Source: Clostridia bacterium (GTDB taxonomy: Bacteria; Bacillota; Clostridia; Oscillospirales; UBA644). From it: a stretch of DNA of 64,000 nucleotides. The stretch spans positions 6,538 to 70,537 of the forward strand of contig JAGAOU010000039.1 in assembly GCA_017623595.1 (NCBI GenBank). Reading direction: 5' to 3'. Shown here in pieces: positions 1,967 to 14,718 of this stretch. The notes beneath the pieces were generated by a model. It did not search any database. It had not been told where the DNA came from and was given only the letters and a program-made list of their open reading frames with translations. Every line of letters starts with the position of its first letter. The stretch's first letter is position 1. A program made the position numbers and the translations under genes.

Positions 1967-2431
1967 TTATGCGTAGACAAAGTAGAGCGAAACGGCGAGG
2001 AGGGTTGAGATTGTGATGCCGACGGCGGCGGTGATGATCCACGGTGCGCGGCGGGGATAGCAGGATTCTTTCACTTTAAAGGCGATCTGAGGAACAACAC
2101 ACATGAGATCGTAGTATATCAGGGTCAAGGTGGTGATGCGGGAGATGAAGCCCATGGAGGTTAGTACAATAAAGAAAATGACCGTTCCTGTCAGATACAT
2201 CAGAATATAACGCATTGCATTGACTATATGGGCAAATTTCTCCATGTCAAGCACATTTTCTTTGATGTATGCCCACATGGCAACGTGAATCCAGTGAAGA
2301 ATTGTGGTAGGCACAATTGCGATGGGGCAGAAGATTGCCAGTCTGACAATGTCATCCATCAAAAGGGCAACGAGAATCGGTATCAGCGTGTATACCGCAA
2401 GCAGCAGCTTGATTCGAAAAGGTTGCTTCAT
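1967..2431 (-). CDS. hypothetical integral membrane protein (154 aa, about 4-5 TM segments)
   Basis: ORF with RBS GAAAGGAG 7 nt upstream of ATG 2431. Hydrophobic helices run throughout. It has its own promoter at 2479..2507. No recognisable family motif. Confidence 0.7.
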   Translation of the reverse strand: MKQPFRIKLLLAVYTLIPILVALLMDDIVRLAIFCPIAIVPTTILHWIHVAMWAYIKENVLDMEKFAHIVNAMRYILMYLTGTVIFFIVLTSMGFISRITTLTLIYYDLMCVVPQIAFKVKESCYPRRAPWIITAAVGITISTLLAVSLYFVYA

Positions 2432-2456
2432 CCAAGATCTCCTTTCGGTGGATATA

Positions 2457-2502
2457 AAGAATCCCCTCTTATGGCCTTATTATAGCATAAAAGGGGATTC
2501 TT
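2457..2502 (-). terminator. Terminator-like hairpin after the ATPase operon
   Basis: Arms 2457..2470 / 2489..2502 (core GAATCCCCT/AGGGGATTC, one mismatch), 18-nt loop, U-rich tail on the minus strand. The loop and arm carry the next promoter. Confidence 0.45.
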
Positions 2503-2507
2503 GTCAA
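2479..2507 (-). promoter_or_regulatory. SigA-type promoter for the 154-aa membrane protein gene
   Basis: -35 TTGACA (2507..2502), 17-bp spacer, extended -10 TGcTATAAT (-10 at 2484..2479). Confidence 0.6.
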
Positions 2508-2511
2508 GTAA

Positions 2512-4446
2512 TTATTCTTTTGGTTCTTCGGGTTGATTTTCCTGATTAAGCTTGAGAATGCGGGAACTGTTCAGAATCACAACGAAGGCTCCGATGTTGT
2601 GGAGAATCGAACCTGCAAGGACGCTGATGACGCCGAAGGAGGAGAGGACGATCATCAAAAAGCTGATTCCGAGGGACAGCCCCAGGTTCTGATATATAAT
2701 CTTACGTGTGCGTTTTGCCAGGGTGATGGCAAAGGGGATGTTCATCAGATTGTCGCTCATCAGTGCGATATCTGCCGATTGAATGGCCAGATCCGACCCG
2801 ATGGCTCCCATGGCAATCCCCACGTGGGCTTCCTTCAGGGCAAGGGCATCGTTGATGCCGTCGCCGATGGCCAGAACACAGCGGTTTTTCTTGATTTCGC
2901 GGATAGAGTCCAGCTTGTCTTCGGGCAAAAGTTGGGCTTTCCATTCCTCGATCCCCGTTTCGCGACTGATTTTTTCAGCGACTTCGGGGCGGTCTCCCGT
3001 CAGCATAACGAACTGTTCGATGTCCAGTTTTTTCAGTGCATCAATGGCATCCTTTGCATCGGGGCGGGCGGTATCGTTAAAGCAAAGAGCGCCCAAAAGA
3101 TTGTTGTTTTCTGTGACATAGCTTACCGAGCCGAAGCAGCGGTTTTTGATTTCTTCGGGGATTTCAATGCCCAGCGTACTCAGCCAGCCCTCGTTTCCGA
3201 AGCGCAGGATTCTGCCGTCGGTATGCACCGCTTCCAGACCTTTCCCCGAAACTTCTCGTACTGTATATCCTTCCGCCGAGATTTCCCGTCCCTCCGCGGC
3301 GGCAACCACGGCTTGGGAGATGGGATGGGTGGAGTGATTTGCCGGCAGCAGGGCAGCGTCGAGCAGGGCTTCATCCGCCACCCCCTCTGCGCAGATGCGG
3401 TCTGTCAGGGACAGATTTCCCTTGGTGATGGTTCCCGTTTTGTCGAAGACTACCGCATCAATGGCGTTCGTTTCTTCCAGGAACTTGGAGTTTTTGATCA
3501 GAATCCCCCGTTTGGTCGCCACCGAAAGGGAAGCGATCATGGGTGCCGAGCTGACCAGCATTTGCCCGCAGGGGCAGGACACCACCAAAATGGCAATTGC
3601 TTTGGACAGATCGGAGGTGAAGAGGGCCACCGCCCCCGCAAGGGCAAGGACGAAGGGAATGTAATACATCATAAAGCGGTCGATCAGACGGGATTCGGGG
3701 ACAGCGATGCGCTCCGCTTTTTCCAGGAAGGTAAGAATATGGGAGAAGGATGTGTCCACGAATTCTTTCTGCACCTCGACGGTAATGGGCGAGTCCAGGT
3801 TGACCGTGCCCGCATAGACGGGGGATCCCACCGTCACATGCACCGATTCCGGTTCACCGGTAAGGGATTTTTGGTCGATATGGGATTCTCCCCCGATGAC
3901 AACTCCGTCAATGGGCACGCCTGCACCGGGTTTGACCAGGATCTTCTGCCCGATTTTCAAGGTCTTGCTGTCAACACGGGTTTCTTCTCCGTTTTCCAGC
4001 AGAATGGCGGAGCTTTGTTGCATTTGACGCAGACCGTCGATGATGTCCCGTCCCCCCACAATGCTTCGCTCTTCCAAAAAGTGGGCAATGTTCAGAATCA
4101 GGGGGATCATGGCGGAGAGAATCAGCTCGCCCGAAATGTAGCAGGCGAGAATGGCGATGGAAACCAGCATTTCCATGGCGTTTGTGAAATCGCGGGAGAA
4201 AATTCCCTTGATTGCCGCAATGAACACCGGAATTCCTTCCACCAAAAAGCCTATGGTATACAAAAGGGGCGCAACTATCGGCAGGCTTGGGATGAGAAAT
4301 TCATAGATCAGGCCGACGGCAATGCAGATCAGGGTGACGGCGGCAGAGATAATCTCTTTTTTCAGTTGTCTGCGTTTGGAACGGCTGAGATTGGTGCGGG
4401 AGAGCGCTTCCAAATTGTCCGCGCCTGCGTGACTGATATTTTTCAT
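2512..4446 (-). CDS. P1B-type (heavy-metal-type) cation-translocating P-type ATPase without an N-terminal HMA domain
   Basis: 644 aa. Motifs seen: TGEP (A domain), SCPC in TM4, FDKTGTIT phosphorylation site, STHPIS (HP motif), MLTGD, GDGINDALAL. Four TM segments precede the A domain. Confidence 0.9.
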   Translation of the reverse strand: MKNISHAGADNLEALSRTNLSRSKRRQLKKEIISAAVTLICIAVGLIYEFLIPSLPIVAPLLYTIGFLVEGIPVFIAAIKGIFSRDFTNAMEMLVSIAILACYISGELILSAMIPLILNIAHFLEERSIVGGRDIIDGLRQMQQSSAILLENGEETRVDSKTLKIGQKILVKPGAGVPIDGVVIGGESHIDQKSLTGEPESVHVTVGSPVYAGTVNLDSPITVEVQKEFVDTSFSHILTFLEKAERIAVPESRLIDRFMMYYIPFVLALAGAVALFTSDLSKAIAILVVSCPCGQMLVSSAPMIASLSVATKRGILIKNSKFLEETNAIDAVVFDKTGTITKGNLSLTDRICAEGVADEALLDAALLPANHSTHPISQAVVAAAEGREISAEGYTVREVSGKGLEAVHTDGRILRFGNEGWLSTLGIEIPEEIKNRCFGSVSYVTENNNLLGALCFNDTARPDAKDAIDALKKLDIEQFVMLTGDRPEVAEKISRETGIEEWKAQLLPEDKLDSIREIKKNRCVLAIGDGINDALALKEAHVGIAMGAIGSDLAIQSADIALMSDNLMNIPFAITLAKRTRKIIYQNLGLSLGISFLMIVLSSFGVISVLAGSILHNIGAFVVILNSSRILKLNQENQPEEPKE

Positions 4447-10332: not shown

Positions 10333-10361
10333 ATCTTACCACACCCGAAGGGATTTGTCAA
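10333..10361 (-). promoter_or_regulatory. SigA-type promoter of pepF
   Basis: -35 TTGACA (10361..10356), 17-bp spacer, extended -10 TGgTAAGAT (-10 at 10338..10333). Confidence 0.55.
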
Positions 10362-10522
10362 GGATTGCGATAAAAAGTTCGTTTCTCGTTTGGAAAATAT
10401 GCGCTTTTTCCCTACCTGTAGTGTCCGTTTTGAGAAATAACTTTTGTTATTTTTTCCTTCTTTTCGCAAAAAATCCCATAATATCAACGAAAAATTACCA
10501 TTGTATAAAAATACGGACACAA

Positions 10523-10538
10523 ACACCATATATAGTGT
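10523..10538 (+). promoter_or_regulatory. NrdR box 1
   Basis: ACACCATATATAGTGT is a near-perfect 16-bp palindrome matching the NrdR operator consensus (acaCwAtATaTwgtgt). Confidence 0.8.
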
Positions 10539-10554
10539 TGAGTTCAAAAGAAAG

Positions 10555-10570
10555 ACACAATATATTGAGA
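10555..10570 (+). promoter_or_regulatory. NrdR box 2
   Basis: ACACAATATATTGAGA has a conserved 5' half and AT core and a degenerate 3' end. It starts 32 bp after box 1 (about 3 helical turns), the typical tandem arrangement. Confidence 0.65.
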
Positions 10571-10578
10571 ATACCCCC

Positions 10579-10607
10579 TTGACATCCGAAGCGAAATGTG
10601 CTATACT
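10579..10607 (+). promoter_or_regulatory. SigA-type promoter of nrdG-nrdD-trxB
   Basis: -35 TTGACA (10579..10584), 17-bp spacer, extended -10 TGcTATACT (-10 at 10602..10607). It sits 9 bp downstream of NrdR box 2. Confidence 0.7.
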
Positions 10608-10640
10608 GTATGCGTACCGCCGAAAGAGAGGAGTGAGCCT

Positions 10641-11327
10641 GTGGACTTTTGCGGATTTCAAAAACTGACCCTGTTGGACTATCCGGGCCGTATGGCCGCA
10701 ACCCTGTTTACCGGTGGGTGCAATCTGCGCTGTCCCTTCTGCCATAACGGCGGGCTGGTCCTTTCCCCCGAGAGCCTTTATTCCGAGGATGAGGTGTTGA
10801 CCTTCCTTGCCTCCCGCAAAGGCCTTTTGGACGGCGTCTGTGTTACGGGTGGGGAGCCCCTGCTTCAGCCTGAGTTGGGAGAATTCCTTTCCAAGGTGAA
10901 GGATTTGGGGATGTCGGTCAAGCTTGACACCAACGGCACGCTCCCGAACCGTCTGAAGGAATTGGTTTCCCGCGGACTTGTGGACTACATCGCCATGGAT
11001 GTGAAAAACTGCCCCGAAAAATATGCCGAAACCACCGGCCTTCCCTCCGTCGATCTTTCCCGTATCAATGAAAGTATTTCCTTTACAATGGAAGGGAAGA
11101 CCGAATACGAGTTCCGTACCACCGTCGTGCGTGAGCTTCACACCGAGGATGATATTGCCAAGTTGGCCCAATGGATCGCAGGAGCGCAAAAGTACGCATT
11201 GCAGTCCTTCGTCGATTCCGGATCTCTTCTGTCCGACGGGCTGACGGCATGGGACAAAGAGACTATGTACCGCATGGCGGACATTGCCCGCAAATCTGTC
11301 CCCAATACCGAGGTGCGGGGCATCTGA
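10641..11327 (+). CDS. nrdG: anaerobic ribonucleoside-triphosphate reductase activating protein (radical SAM)
   Basis: CNLRCPFCHN radical-SAM cluster motif. The start is moved to GTG 10641 (RBS AGAGGAG 7 nt upstream), because the ORF-track ATG 10596 lies inside the promoter spacer. Confidence 0.9.
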   Translation: MDFCGFQKLTLLDYPGRMAATLFTGGCNLRCPFCHNGGLVLSPESLYSEDEVLTFLASRKGLLDGVCVTGGEPLLQPELGEFLSKVKDLGMSVKLDTNGTLPNRLKELVSRGLVDYIAMDVKNCPEKYAETTGLPSVDLSRINESISFTMEGKTEYEFRTTVVRELHTEDDIAKLAQWIAGAQKYALQSFVDSGSLLSDGLTAWDKETMYRMADIARKSVPNTEVRGI

Positions 11328-11371
11328 AATGTAAATAAAAAACAATCGATATATAAAAAAGGAGAAACACT

Positions 11372-13744
11372 ATGTACCATGTAGTAAAAAGAGGCGGCTC
11401 TGTTGTCAGCTTTGACGTTCGCAAGATCTGTGATGCGATCCAGAAGGCCTTTGACGCCACCGGCAAAAACTATCATCCTTCCACCATCGACTTTTTGGGT
11501 CTGAAGGTTACGGCCGATTTCGAGCCGAAGATCAAAGACGATGTGATCGCCGTAGAAGATATTCAGGACAGCGTGGAATCGGTTCTGATTCAGGCGGGCT
11601 ATTCCGATGTCGCCAAGGCCTACATTCTCTATCGCCGTCAGCGGGAAAAGCTCCGCGCTATCGGCGCTACCGCTCTGGACTATAAAGAAACGGTCAACGG
11701 CTATCTGGGCGGCTCCGACTGGCGCGTGAAGGAGAACTCCACCGTTACCTACTCTGTCGGTGGTCTGATCCTCAGCAACTCCGGTGCCATCACCGCGAAC
11801 TATTGGCTTTCCGAGATCTATGATGACGAGATCTCCAATGCACACCGTAACGGCGATATTCATCTTCATGACCTTTCCATGCTCACCGGTTACTGTGCCG
11901 GTTGGTCCCTCAAGCAGCTGATTCAGGAAGGTCTCGGCGGTGTTCCCGGTAAGATCACCTCTGCTCCCGCAAGCCACCTTTCCACCCTCTGCAATCAGAT
12001 GGTAAACTTCCTGGGTATCATGCAGAACGAATGGGCCGGCGCTCAGGCTTTCTCTTCTTTTGACACCTATCTTGCTCCCTTTGTCAAGATCGATAATCTG
12101 TCTCAGCGTGAAGTCAAGCAGTGCATCCAGTCCTTCATTTACGGTGTGAACACCCCCAGCCGCTGGGGTACTCAGGCACCCTTCTCCAACATTACTTTGG
12201 ACTGGGTCTGCCCCCCCGACCTGAAGGATCAGCCTGCCATCGTCGGCGGTAAGGAAATGGACTTCACCTACGGCGACTGCAAGAAGGAGATGGATATGGT
12301 CAACAAGGCCTTCATCGAAATCATGATCGAAGGCGATGCCAACGGCCGCGGATTCCAGTATCCCATCCCCACCTATTCCATCACCCGCGACTTCGACTGG
12401 AGCGAAACCGAAAACAACAAACTCCTCTTCGAAATGACCGCAAAATACGGGACTCCCTATTTCTCCAACTATATCAACTCCGACATGGAACCCAGCGACG
12501 TTCGCTCCATGTGTTGCCGTCTCCGTCTTGACCTGCGTGAACTGCGCAAGAAGTCCGGCGGCTTCTTCGGCAGCGGTGAATCCACCGGCTCCATCGGCGT
12601 TGTTACCATCAATCTGCCCCGCATTGCTTACCTTGCGGACAACGAAGCAGACTTCTACGCTCGTCTCGATCGGTTGATGGATGTTGCCGCCCGCAGTCTG
12701 AAGACCAAGCGTGAGGTTATCACCAAGCTGATGGAGAACGGACTGTATCCCTATACCAAGCGTTATCTGGGAACCTTCGCCAACCACTTCTCCACCATCG
12801 GTCTGATCGGTATGAACGAAGTCGGTTTGAACGCAAACTGGCTCCGTGCAGACCTCACCCATGACATTACCCAGCAGTTTGCTAAGGACGTGCTGAATCA
12901 TATGCGGGAACGTCTGTCCGACTATCAGGAAAAGTACGGCGACCTGTACAACCTGGAAGCTACTCCCGCCGAATCCACTACCTATCGCTTTGCCAAGCAC
13001 GATAAGAAGCACTATCCCAACATCATCACCGCCAATGAAAACGGTACTCCTTATTACACCAACTCTTCCCACCTGCCTGTGGGCTACACCGCAGACGTGT
13101 TCACCGCTTTGAGCATGCAGGATGAGCTTCACACCCTCTACACCTCCGGTACCGTGTTCCACGCTTATCTGGGTGAAAAGCTGCCCGACTGGAAGGCTGC
13201 CGCTTCTCTCGTTCGCAAGATCGCCGAGAACTTCAAGCTGCCCTACTATTCCATCAGCCCCACCTATTCCGTATGCCCCACCCACGGTTATATCACCGGC
13301 GAGCACTTCTCCTGCCCCGAATGCGGACATGAGACCGAGGTTTACAGCCGTATCACCGGTTACTACCGTCCCGTCAAGCACTGGAATGACGGTAAGAGCC
13401 AGGAATACAAGGACCGTAAGGTATACGATGTGGCAACCTCCGTGCTGAAAACCTCTGTGAAAGAGACTCCCTGCAGCTGTGAAGATGCTTGTCAGGTCGC
13501 TCCTCAGACCGCAGAAGCAAAGGTTCTGCTCTTCAGCCGTGTGACCTGCCCCAATTGCCGTGTGGCTGAAACCATGCTGGCAAAAGCAGGTGTGGCTTAT
13601 GAGAAACTGATTGCAGACGAACATCTGGATCTTTGCCAGAAGTATGGAATCAAGGGCGCTCCCACCCTGGTTGTGGATGACGGCACCCACTTTGCCACCT
13701 ATTACTCCGTGCAGGAAATCAAGAAGTTTATCGCTTCTCTGTAA
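11372..13744 (+). CDS. nrdD: anaerobic (class III) ribonucleoside-triphosphate reductase with an N-terminal ATP-cone and a C-terminal fused thioredoxin-fold domain
   Basis: RBS AAGGAGA. ATP-cone (MYHVVKRGGSVVSFDVRKICDAIQKAF...), Zn-ribbon CPTH...CPECG, glycyl-radical motif SRITGYYRPV, then a linker and a CPNC redoxin module. Confidence 0.95.
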   Translation: MYHVVKRGGSVVSFDVRKICDAIQKAFDATGKNYHPSTIDFLGLKVTADFEPKIKDDVIAVEDIQDSVESVLIQAGYSDVAKAYILYRRQREKLRAIGATALDYKETVNGYLGGSDWRVKENSTVTYSVGGLILSNSGAITANYWLSEIYDDEISNAHRNGDIHLHDLSMLTGYCAGWSLKQLIQEGLGGVPGKITSAPASHLSTLCNQMVNFLGIMQNEWAGAQAFSSFDTYLAPFVKIDNLSQREVKQCIQSFIYGVNTPSRWGTQAPFSNITLDWVCPPDLKDQPAIVGGKEMDFTYGDCKKEMDMVNKAFIEIMIEGDANGRGFQYPIPTYSITRDFDWSETENNKLLFEMTAKYGTPYFSNYINSDMEPSDVRSMCCRLRLDLRELRKKSGGFFGSGESTGSIGVVTINLPRIAYLADNEADFYARLDRLMDVAARSLKTKREVITKLMENGLYPYTKRYLGTFANHFSTIGLIGMNEVGLNANWLRADLTHDITQQFAKDVLNHMRERLSDYQEKYGDLYNLEATPAESTTYRFAKHDKKHYPNIITANENGTPYYTNSSHLPVGYTADVFTALSMQDELHTLYTSGTVFHAYLGEKLPDWKAAASLVRKIAENFKLPYYSISPTYSVCPTHGYITGEHFSCPECGHETEVYSRITGYYRPVKHWNDGKSQEYKDRKVYDVATSVLKTSVKETPCSCEDACQVAPQTAEAKVLLFSRVTCPNCRVAETMLAKAGVAYEKLIADEHLDLCQKYGIKGAPTLVVDDGTHFATYYSVQEIKKFIASL
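13523..13741 (+). other. C-terminal glutaredoxin/NrdH/thioredoxin-like domain of NrdD (73 aa)
   Basis: VLLFSRVTCPNCRVAETMLAKAGVAYEKLIADEHLDLCQKYGIKGAPTLVVDDG...: a beta-strand leads into a CPxC dithiol, and a GAPT cis-Pro loop precedes a beta-strand, which is the thioredoxin-fold pattern. Confidence 0.75.
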
Positions 13745-13768
13745 TTCTGACGAGACGGAGACGATATT

Positions 13769-14680
13769 ATGCATGATATTATCATCGTCGGCGGGGGCCC
13801 TGCGGGGCTCACCGCCGCCGTCTACGCTTTGCGGGGCGGAAAGAGCACTCTCGTAATTGAAAAAAGCGGATTCGGAGGGCAGATTGCCTTTTCTCCCAAG
13901 GTGGAGAACATTCCGGGAACCCAAAGCATCAGCGGTGCGGAATTTGCCGATAAGCTCACCGAGCAGGCCATGGCCCTCGGCGCGGATGTGGAATTGGAAA
14001 CGGTTGTCAGTGCGGAGATTGATGGTCCTGTCAAAAAGGTATACACCGAAGAGGGAAACGTCTTTGAGGGAAGAGCTCTGATTCTTGCCACCGGCGTGAA
14101 GCACCGTATGCTGGGGCTGGAAGGGGAGACCGATCTGATTGGAAACGGTATTTCCTTCTGTGCGGTCTGCGATGGCGCCTTTTATGCGGGACAGGATGTG
14201 GTCATGGTCGGAGGCGGCAATTCCGCCTTGCAGGAGGCCCTTTTGCTCAGTGAGGTCTGCCGCAGTGTTACCGTGGTACAGAATCTCCCTGTCTTTACGG
14301 GAGAAAAGACCTTGGCTGATGCGCTTTTTGCCAAGGAAAACGTCAAGGTTCGTTTCTCTACGTTGGTTGTCGGATACCTTCAGCAGGATGGCCGTCTGAC
14401 AGGGCTTCGTTTGCGGGACGAAGCGGGGCAGGAATCCGAAATCGCCGCCGACGGCGTCTTTCTTGCCGTTGGTTTGGTGCCCGAAAACGAGGCATTTGCC
14501 TCTCTGGCCTCTCTGGATGAGCGGGGCTATTTCGATGCGGACGAATCCTGCAAGACCTCCACTCCCGGAGTTTTTGTGGCAGGGGATTGCCGCCGCAAGG
14601 CCATTCGTCAGGTGACCACTGCCGCCTGTGACGGCACCGTTGCCGCCACCGCCGCCGCGGATTATTTGAATTCACTGTAA
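13769..14680 (+). CDS. trxB: thioredoxin-disulfide reductase (low-Mr type)
   Basis: GGGPAG and GGGNSA dinucleotide motifs and the redox-active CAVCDG. It starts 25 nt after the nrdD stop, with RBS GGAGA. Confidence 0.92.
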   Translation: MHDIIIVGGGPAGLTAAVYALRGGKSTLVIEKSGFGGQIAFSPKVENIPGTQSISGAEFADKLTEQAMALGADVELETVVSAEIDGPVKKVYTEEGNVFEGRALILATGVKHRMLGLEGETDLIGNGISFCAVCDGAFYAGQDVVMVGGGNSALQEALLLSEVCRSVTVVQNLPVFTGEKTLADALFAKENVKVRFSTLVVGYLQQDGRLTGLRLRDEAGQESEIAADGVFLAVGLVPENEAFASLASLDERGYFDADESCKTSTPGVFVAGDCRRKAIRQVTTAACDGTVAATAAADYLNSL

Positions 14681-14718
14681 TTGTTCAAAAATAGTTCCTT
14701 TCTTTTTTAAGAAAAGTG

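Follow-up and report, generated by a model that had tools for sequence, protein, structure and literature searches.

A predicted electron-supply cassette for a thiol-dependent class III ribonucleotide reductase with a tethered redoxin domain in an Oscillospirales genome

Which reductant, formate or thioredoxin, serves the majority of the oxygen-sensitive class III ribonucleotide reductases (RNRs), those with an MCCR finger loop and an active-site glutamate? Either is possible according to Burnim et al. 2022 (PMC9669993), and a locus of the gut organism Clostridia bacterium (Oscillospirales, UBA644) makes the question testable. The locus lies in a 64-kb stretch of contig JAGAOU010000039.1 (assembly GCA_017623595.1), referred to here as the window. 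It encodes a radical-SAM activase (NrdG), a catalytic subunit (NrdD) whose reading frame runs on into a redoxin domain, and a paralog of thioredoxin reductase (TrxB). An earlier note, made from the sequence of the window, had proposed that this organism hard-wires the whole electron path, from NADPH to TrxB to a tethered redoxin to NrdD, within one operon and partly within one polypeptide. The core of this idea, a thiol-type NrdD with a tethered redoxin and a dedicated operon TrxB, is supported by the active site, by the fold of the tail and by a second TrxB in the genome. NADPH as the donor is unsupported, and restriction to this organism did not stand. The locus is best explained as a self-contained cassette under NrdR control that supplies electrons to a thiol-dependent (NrdD2-type) class III RNR.

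The features of a class III catalytic subunit are all present in the fusion protein: an NRDD barrel (aa 121-685 by Pfam; TIGR02487, 527 bits), Zn-ribbon cysteines and an RxxGY glycyl-radical motif. The residues of the NrdD2 subtype are present as well, namely a third active-site cysteine beside the thiyl cysteine (CC) and an active-site glutamate; the former defines the subtype (Aurelius et al., PMC4493059). Cys175 is invariant among 70 homologues. The SMCCR loop, with M380, occurs in 117/117 full-length homologues, and the Glu529 motif is kept in 116 of them. The active-site comparison that the earlier note had called for thus gives the double-cysteine plus glutamate type (C175, M380-C381-C382, E529) and not the MGCR formate type. 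The AlphaFold2 model of the protein has pLDDT below 50 at residues 168-176, the segment of the beta-A cysteine, and at 384-402, just after the finger-loop CC. The low values echo the conformational ambiguity of the double-cysteine finger loop reported for Thermotoga maritima NrdD.

As had been noticed at the outset, the NrdD frame continues past the glycyl-radical motif into a thioredoxin-like module: RITGYYRPV, at aa 660-668, is followed in the same frame by VTCPNC (C726, C729) and GAPTLVV. A linker does precede the module. It comprises some 25-30 residues instead of the ~45 first estimated, since the conserved NrdD tail extends for ~22 residues beyond the glycyl motif. For the redoxin domain pLDDT is 81-91 within the full-length model and 89.5 in a model of the domain by itself. 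Its secondary structure runs beta-alpha-beta-alpha-beta-beta-alpha (DSSP on the AlphaFold2 models). Helix 1 starts at residue 727, with CPNC at its N-terminus, and the invariant P764 precedes strand 3 (765-769). In a Foldseek search of the PDB all 50 matches listed were thioredoxin-fold proteins, mostly thioredoxins (probability 1.00, TM 0.58-0.77). The predicted thioredoxin fold of the tail is borne out by these models and matches.

Standard domain annotation misses this tail. Pfam redoxin models stay under their cut-offs on the full-length protein (Thioredoxin_2, 23.7 vs 27; Glutaredoxin, 19.4 vs 22.9), and two models narrowly pass on the isolated 73-aa piece (29.0 vs 27; 24.7 vs 22.9). Such scores may explain why domain surveys overlook the tail, and probably explain why proteins of this kind are annotated as plain 'ribonucleoside triphosphate reductase'. 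The hallmarks of NrdH-redoxins are the motifs C-V/M-Q-C and WSGFRP. Assignment of the tail to NrdH or to the classical glutaredoxins was rejected: TIGR02194 gives 21 bits against a cut-off of 85.75, the redox motif is CPNC and not CVQC or CPYC, and WSGFRP is not present in the tail sequence. In principle the cysteine cluster of the linker (C701, C703, C707) could serve as a shuttle within the molecule, linking the CPNC domain with the disulfide buried in the active site. A linker cysteine pair is found in 37 of 70 diverse homologues. No linker cysteine occurs in 27 of the 70, so the shuttle cannot be obligatory, and the idea of an obligatory one is weakened.

The neighbouring low-Mr TrxB paralog keeps the FAD motif GGGPAG, the redox-active CAVC and the pyrophosphate motif GGGNSALQE. 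The 2'-phosphate motif VxxxHRRDxxRA, characteristic of NADPH-dependent thioredoxin reductases (TrxR; PMC5627308), is missing, and the protein does not reach the TIGR01292 equivalog score. QNLPVFTGE in place of HRRDxxRA, together with the intact GGGNSALQE, makes NADH a better guess than NADPH. The donor is more likely a pyridine nucleotide lacking the 2'-phosphate, and NADPH, named as electron source at first, is left without support. The closest solved relative, 7jyp (250 bits), has the same VQNLP in place of VHRRD; FFTR (6gna-6gnd) and TRi (5nii) are matched at only ~100 bits. Identification of the paralog with FFTR or TRi was rejected on its intact pyrophosphate motif and its low similarity to those structures. 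A canonical TrxB (387 bits, VHRRDTLRA) is encoded on contig C100, and three canonical thioredoxins are also encoded elsewhere in the genome. The adjacent trxB is therefore a dedicated paralog; the possibility raised beforehand, that it is the sole housekeeping copy, is ruled out.

The same position was compared in other species. Among 63 neighbouring TrxBs, 38 carry Q[N/D][L/M]xxxTGE, 24 carry HRRxxFRG and one has another sequence; the pyrophosphate motif GGGxxAxx is intact in 63/63. Most of the non-HRR proteins have GNG, GEG or GDG in place of the thioredoxin-docking motif G[R/K]G. The mixture of motifs indicates that the donor is not uniform across the family, and it probably differs between lineages.

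The genes of the cassette form one unit (table 1). The earlier note had placed trxB directly after nrdD, at 25 nt. Its position stands, and the gap between the nrdD stop (TAA) and the trxB start is 24 nt, which hold only a GGAGA ribosome-binding site and are too short for a terminator. The start of nrdG is most likely the GTG at 10641, behind the ribosome-binding site GAGAGGAG; the open frame itself spans 243 aa. The box pattern matches nowhere in the window but at the two NrdR boxes (chance expectation 0.08), and the promoter lies 3' of them, ahead of nrdG. The features of an NrdR regulon are thus all found: paired 16-bp boxes about three helical turns apart near a promoter, and an NrdR gene in the genome (contig C62; TIGR00244, 174 bits against a cut-off of 125). 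Open reading frames (ORFs), box scan and promoter match confirm the proposed unit nrdG-nrdD::redoxin-trxB behind one promoter with tandem NrdR boxes.

Table 1. Features of the cassette, in window coordinates.
Feature	Position	Strand	Evidence or remark
Whole cassette (operators, promoter, nrdG, nrdD::redoxin, trxB)	10363..14682	+	~4.3-kb insertion relative to same-genus genomes
NrdR box 1, palindromic, ACACCATATATAGTGT	10523..10538	+	box-pattern match
NrdR box 2, ACACAATATATTGAGA	10555..10570	+	32 bp after box 1
Sigma-70-type promoter, TTGACA-17-TATACT, TG extended -10	10579..10607	+	11/12 consensus matches
nrdG, radical-SAM activase, 228 aa, GTG start	10641..11327	+	TIGR02495 (NrdG2), 212.5 bits vs cut-off 131
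nrdD::redoxin fusion, 790 aa	11372..13744	+	PF13597, E 2.5e-193; NF006126, 1143 bits
ATP-cone, aa 3-92	11378..11647	+	PF03477, E 4.6e-21
Cys175, beta-A active-site cysteine (GYCAGW)	11894..11896	+	aligns with Cys of T. maritima NrdD 'YCFAYTLK' (PDB 4coi)
Finger loop S379-M380-C381-C382-R383, double-cysteine motif with Met	12506..12520	+	aligns with SCCRL of T. maritima NrdD
Glu529 (NLEATPAE), NrdD2-type active-site glutamate	12956..12958	+	aligns with NIEQVPAE of T. maritima NrdD
Glycyl-radical motif RITGYY (Gly663), after Zn-ribbon cysteines C635, C648, C651	13349..13366	+	sequence comparison
Variable, disordered Ala/Pro/Glu/Lys-rich linker, aa 691-716, with C701, C703, C707 (CxCxxxC)	13442..13519	+	pLDDT <50 at 697-714
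Thioredoxin-fold redoxin domain, aa 717-790	13520..13741	+	AlphaFold2 model, Foldseek
Redox motif C726-P-N-C729	13547-13558	+	TCPNC invariant in homologues
cis-Pro loop A763-P764-T765	within 13520..13741	+	APT invariant in homologues
Low-Mr thioredoxin-reductase paralog, 303 aa	13769..14680	+	TIGR01292, 296 bits, below cut-off 343
CAVC, aa 131-134	14159-14170	+	redox-active CxxC of TrxB paralog
QNLPVFTGE in place of HRRDxxRA	14279-14305	+	TrxB paralog sequence; full stretch reads VTVVQNLPVFTGE

The whole unit is an insertion. Only 46-70 bp separate pepF from fucO in three congeners, against ~4.3 kb in the window. Homology between the congeners and the window ends near 10346-10362 and resumes near 14683, right after the trxB stop, so that the inserted stretch runs from just past the pepF promoter to the stop codon of trxB. 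The clean empty site indicates that operators, promoter, activase, reductase with redoxin and reductase paralog moved as one block, and these comparisons show the cassette to be laterally acquired. Its closest relatives in a sample of the order belong to another family, with 66-71% identity in the tail. Inspection by eye of the insertion junctions, where no systematic search was made, showed neither mobile-element genes nor flanking repeats. Mis-binning of the contig, considered as a cause for congeners without the operon, is ruled out. IleRS, encoded 2.4 kb downstream, is 89-90% identical to its congener counterparts, and the contig therefore belongs to the genus; both flanks align with the congeners at 78-86% DNA identity.

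The insertion coincides with a different equipment for deoxyribonucleotide synthesis. The redoxin domain was not found in the other three sampled genomes of the genus. Their NrdD is only 29-30% identical to that of the window and has the formate-type finger loop MGCR in the two loci where the gene was read. All three encode a true pyruvate formate-lyase (PFL; 1163-1181 bits against a cut-off of 994). In the genome of the window neither a second NrdD nor a class I or II RNR was found, and no match to PFL exceeded 87 bits; this genome is 86% complete, and these absences are therefore only probable. The cassette appears to have replaced the formate-dependent system of the congeners. Such a swap matches a correlation that PMC4390871 attributes to Wei et al., according to which thiol-type enzymes occur where formate metabolism is lacking. 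Four glycyl-radical-enzyme-like frames of 673-715 aa were also seen in the genome of the window, G000 (C71:160308-161633, C119:35653-36222, C58:14510-15070 and C73:7524-8225). They match the C-terminal part of the PFL model weakly (48-87 bits) and are not pyruvate formate-lyase.

The architecture of NrdD::redoxin with an operon trxB is real and is not confined to this organism. In an even sample of genomes from the window's order the redoxin domain occurs in 127/301 genomes (63/152 genera), almost always in frames of 780-860 aa. A pattern scan in which each species was represented by one genome gave at least 591 loci, with named matches that include Faecousia, Oscillospiraceae, Acutalibacteraceae, Ruminococcaceae and Faecalibacterium. 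A search with the tail only gave 476 protein clusters at 90% identity; among the 120 matches listed nearly all are ~790 aa long. The search for further NrdDs with a C-terminal redoxin, suggested in the earlier note, thus finds them widely. In a phylum-wide sample this NrdD type occurs in 135/401 genomes, about 28 of the 135 being fused, some of them outside the class. Representatives at 50% identity form ~13 distinct fused clusters, some with inteins and one with a QCCR loop.

Linkage to trxB is conserved too. Of 74 informative species loci, 59 have trxB no more than 400 nt downstream and 6 have it further off. Twenty unfused relatives (50-59% identity) have neither redoxin nor trxB within ~3.5 kb downstream, and in 14 of the 20 the gene order is reversed, nrdD then nrdG. 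Comparison of fused with unfused loci indicates that the fusion, the downstream trxB and the upstream nrdG travel together. An Oscillospiraceae metagenome-assembled genome encodes a free-standing 79-aa CPNC redoxin (L113:2026-2265), followed 64 nt on by an HRRD-type TrxB (2330-3238). There is no nrdD nearby, and an integrase-like ORF lies upstream of the pair. The presence of this pair without nrdD suggests that redoxin and TrxB pre-existed as a two-gene module.

Three variations were seen among the relatives. Many close NrdD relatives, P0122, P0124, P0126, P0127 and P0133 among them, reach 1000-1900 aa, and their matches to the query fall into 2-4 separate stretches, as expected for genes interrupted by inteins. 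Several of these proteins also have the CPNC tail. P0241 (806 aa), a distant cluster representative, combines a QCCR finger loop (NrdD3-like, without Met) with a C-terminal CPNC tail, so the fusion is not confined to the MCCR plus Glu class. Fused loci L049, L050, L091, L101 and L112 come from bins labelled Bifidobacteriaceae, Alloprevotella, Lentisphaeria or Erysipelotrichaceae, and represent either mis-binned contigs or wider lateral spread.

The likely turnover reductant is the tethered redoxin, which the neighbouring flavoenzyme would recharge. The following steps are proposed. (i) NrdG would place the glycyl radical on Gly663. (ii) Each turnover would oxidise C175 with C381 or C382 to a disulfide, with E529 as proton relay. 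(iii) The C-terminal CPNC domain would then reduce this active-site disulfide. (iv) Carried just after the glycyl-radical domain on its flexible linker of ~25-30 residues, the domain could act in cis or on the partner subunit. (v) The TrxB paralog encoded 24 nt downstream would recharge the CPNC domain, drawing probably on NADH. Several points weigh against this scheme. The MCCR finger loop keeps the Met of formate-type enzymes, and the enzyme may thus be able to use formate. AlphaFold2 gives no confident placement of the redoxin domain relative to the NrdD core. No trxB lies within 4 kb in 9/74 informative loci, and the 24/63 neighbouring TrxBs with HRR are ordinary NADPH types. Incompleteness of the genome weakens the case that PFL and a second RNR are missing. 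No biochemistry on any fused member was found in the literature searched.

The alternative that survives best retains formate as the turnover reductant and assigns redoxin and TrxB to activation or repair, where they would keep the Zn-ribbon and glycyl-radical-domain cysteines reduced. The invariance of M380 accords with it, as does the position of the redoxin, which follows the Zn-ribbon and glycyl-radical domain directly. According to Burnim et al. 2022 (PMC9669993), MCCR enzymes possess the components for either formate or thioredoxin, and thioredoxin was reported to play such a part in the activation of Escherichia coli NrdD (Lundin et al.). This alternative is nevertheless unlikely. Every fused protein examined also has the two residues by which thiol-dependent NrdD2 is defined, the second Cys and the Glu. 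PFL was not found in the genome of the window, whereas 3/3 congeners, which have MGCR NrdD, possess one, and the formate-type NrdDs of these congeners are without the redoxin domain.

A further possibility accepts thiol dependence and supposes that the flavoenzyme is fed by reduced ferredoxin or another carrier, as are clostridial FFTR and Desulfovibrio TRi. The loss of HRRDxxRA from the TrxB paralog would fit, and the Methanosarcina barkeri NrdD3 system is reportedly ferredoxin-linked. TrxR relatives independent of NAD(P)H exist in anaerobic Firmicutes (PMC5627308). Such a supply is nonetheless improbable here: the GGGxxAxx motif, degenerate in TRi, is intact in every neighbouring TrxB, and the paralog resembles 7jyp, a TrxR of ordinary length, far more closely than FFTR or TRi. 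Least credible by far is the idea that the adjacency means nothing for RNR and that a general disulfide-stress module, such as the pair found without nrdD at L113, came to lie beside nrdD by chance, given a redoxin in frame with NrdD in hundreds of species, one NrdR-controlled promoter and a 24-nt gap within the unit, and a cassette that moved as one block.

Among known systems, the tethered-redoxin enzyme is most readily compared with the thioredoxin-dependent NrdD2 enzymes. These include Neisseria bacilliformis NrdD, which operates with TrxA, TrxB and NADPH, and T. maritima NrdD (PDB 4COI/4U3E; Wei et al. 2014, via PMC4493059 and PMC9669993). NrdD of the window shares with them the beta-A cysteine, the double-cysteine loop, the glutamate, the glycyl-radical domain with its Zn ribbon and the lack of an evident endogenous formate source. 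It differs in that its redoxin is part of the NrdD polypeptide, where theirs is a free thioredoxin, and in having a private operon TrxB paralog without the NADPH 2'-phosphate motif. Its loop is MCCR, unlike the SCCR of the Neisseria and Thermotoga enzymes, it has an ATP-cone, and its identity to T. maritima NrdD is low (133 bits). T. maritima also has a TrxR that prefers NADH and is partnered by a glutaredoxin-like protein (Yang and Ma 2010, as cited in PMC5627308). This is a low-Mr enzyme with a non-canonical redoxin partner in an NrdD2 organism; the NADH preference of the window's TrxB is suggested by its motifs only.

Other comparisons concern the redoxin itself. In M. barkeri NrdD3 a separate redoxin is listed as 'Glutaredoxin-like NrdH (NrdD3)' (PMC9176816). 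Both are class III RNRs with a small dedicated redoxin and not a housekeeping thioredoxin. In NrdD3 the active-site Glu is missing, the loop reads QCCR and the redoxin is a separate protein; the tail in the window fails the NrdH model. The class I RNR of Facklamia ignava provides the other parallel, a Grx::ATP-cone::NrdB fusion (Rozman Grinberg et al. 2018, PMC6187632). There a redoxin fused to an RNR subunit was shown to act as the enzyme's own reductant, the role proposed for the tail in the window. Unlike the latter, the F. ignava fusion is N-terminal and on the radical-generating class I subunit, and its Grx is GSH-dependent, with no dedicated reductase gene.

In the literature searched, a redoxin fused to an RNR was tested only for class I NrdB (PMC6187632). 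The RefSeq survey in the same paper includes a single Glutaredoxin:NrdD composition, from Lachnospiraceae bacterium TWA4 (a different subclass, NrdDd), with no ATP-cone listed. In their survey of RNR extensions, Burnim et al. 2022 report nothing but the glycyl-radical domain at the C-termini of class III enzymes. The NrdD::redoxin architecture thus seems undescribed and untested in the literature searched, yet it is abundant in public data, and the enzyme in the window is an uncharacterised variant among the thiol-dependent class III RNRs. The fused form, which is the sole RNR detected in the genome of the window, is one that many dominant Oscillospirales of gut and rumen depend on. With a tethered redoxin and a private reductase, the route of a protein thiol to the class III active site can be tested with three purified proteins. 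The swap within the genus is a natural experiment that ties the choice of reductant to the formate metabolism of the host.

A more far-reaching proposal is that the cassette is a portable 'formate-independence' module, which would let a host discard its formate-type NrdD and PFL and would employ the linker cysteines as an intramolecular shuttle. This combination is doubtful. If true, the linker shuttle would have re-invented, by convergence, the shuttle cysteines at the C-terminus of class I and class II RNRs; it would also explain how a reducing protein gains access to a class III active site that the glycyl-radical domain plugs. According to Lundin et al. 2015, no external shuttle disulfide has been shown for the class III active site.

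The 3' end of the cassette lies directly ahead of the fucO promoter. Since this promoter is kept in the congeners, the inserted cassette ends without a recognisable terminator. The segment 14683-14765 of the window comprises the fucO promoter region (TGTGCTATAAT) and a palindrome, GGGGAATTCCCC.

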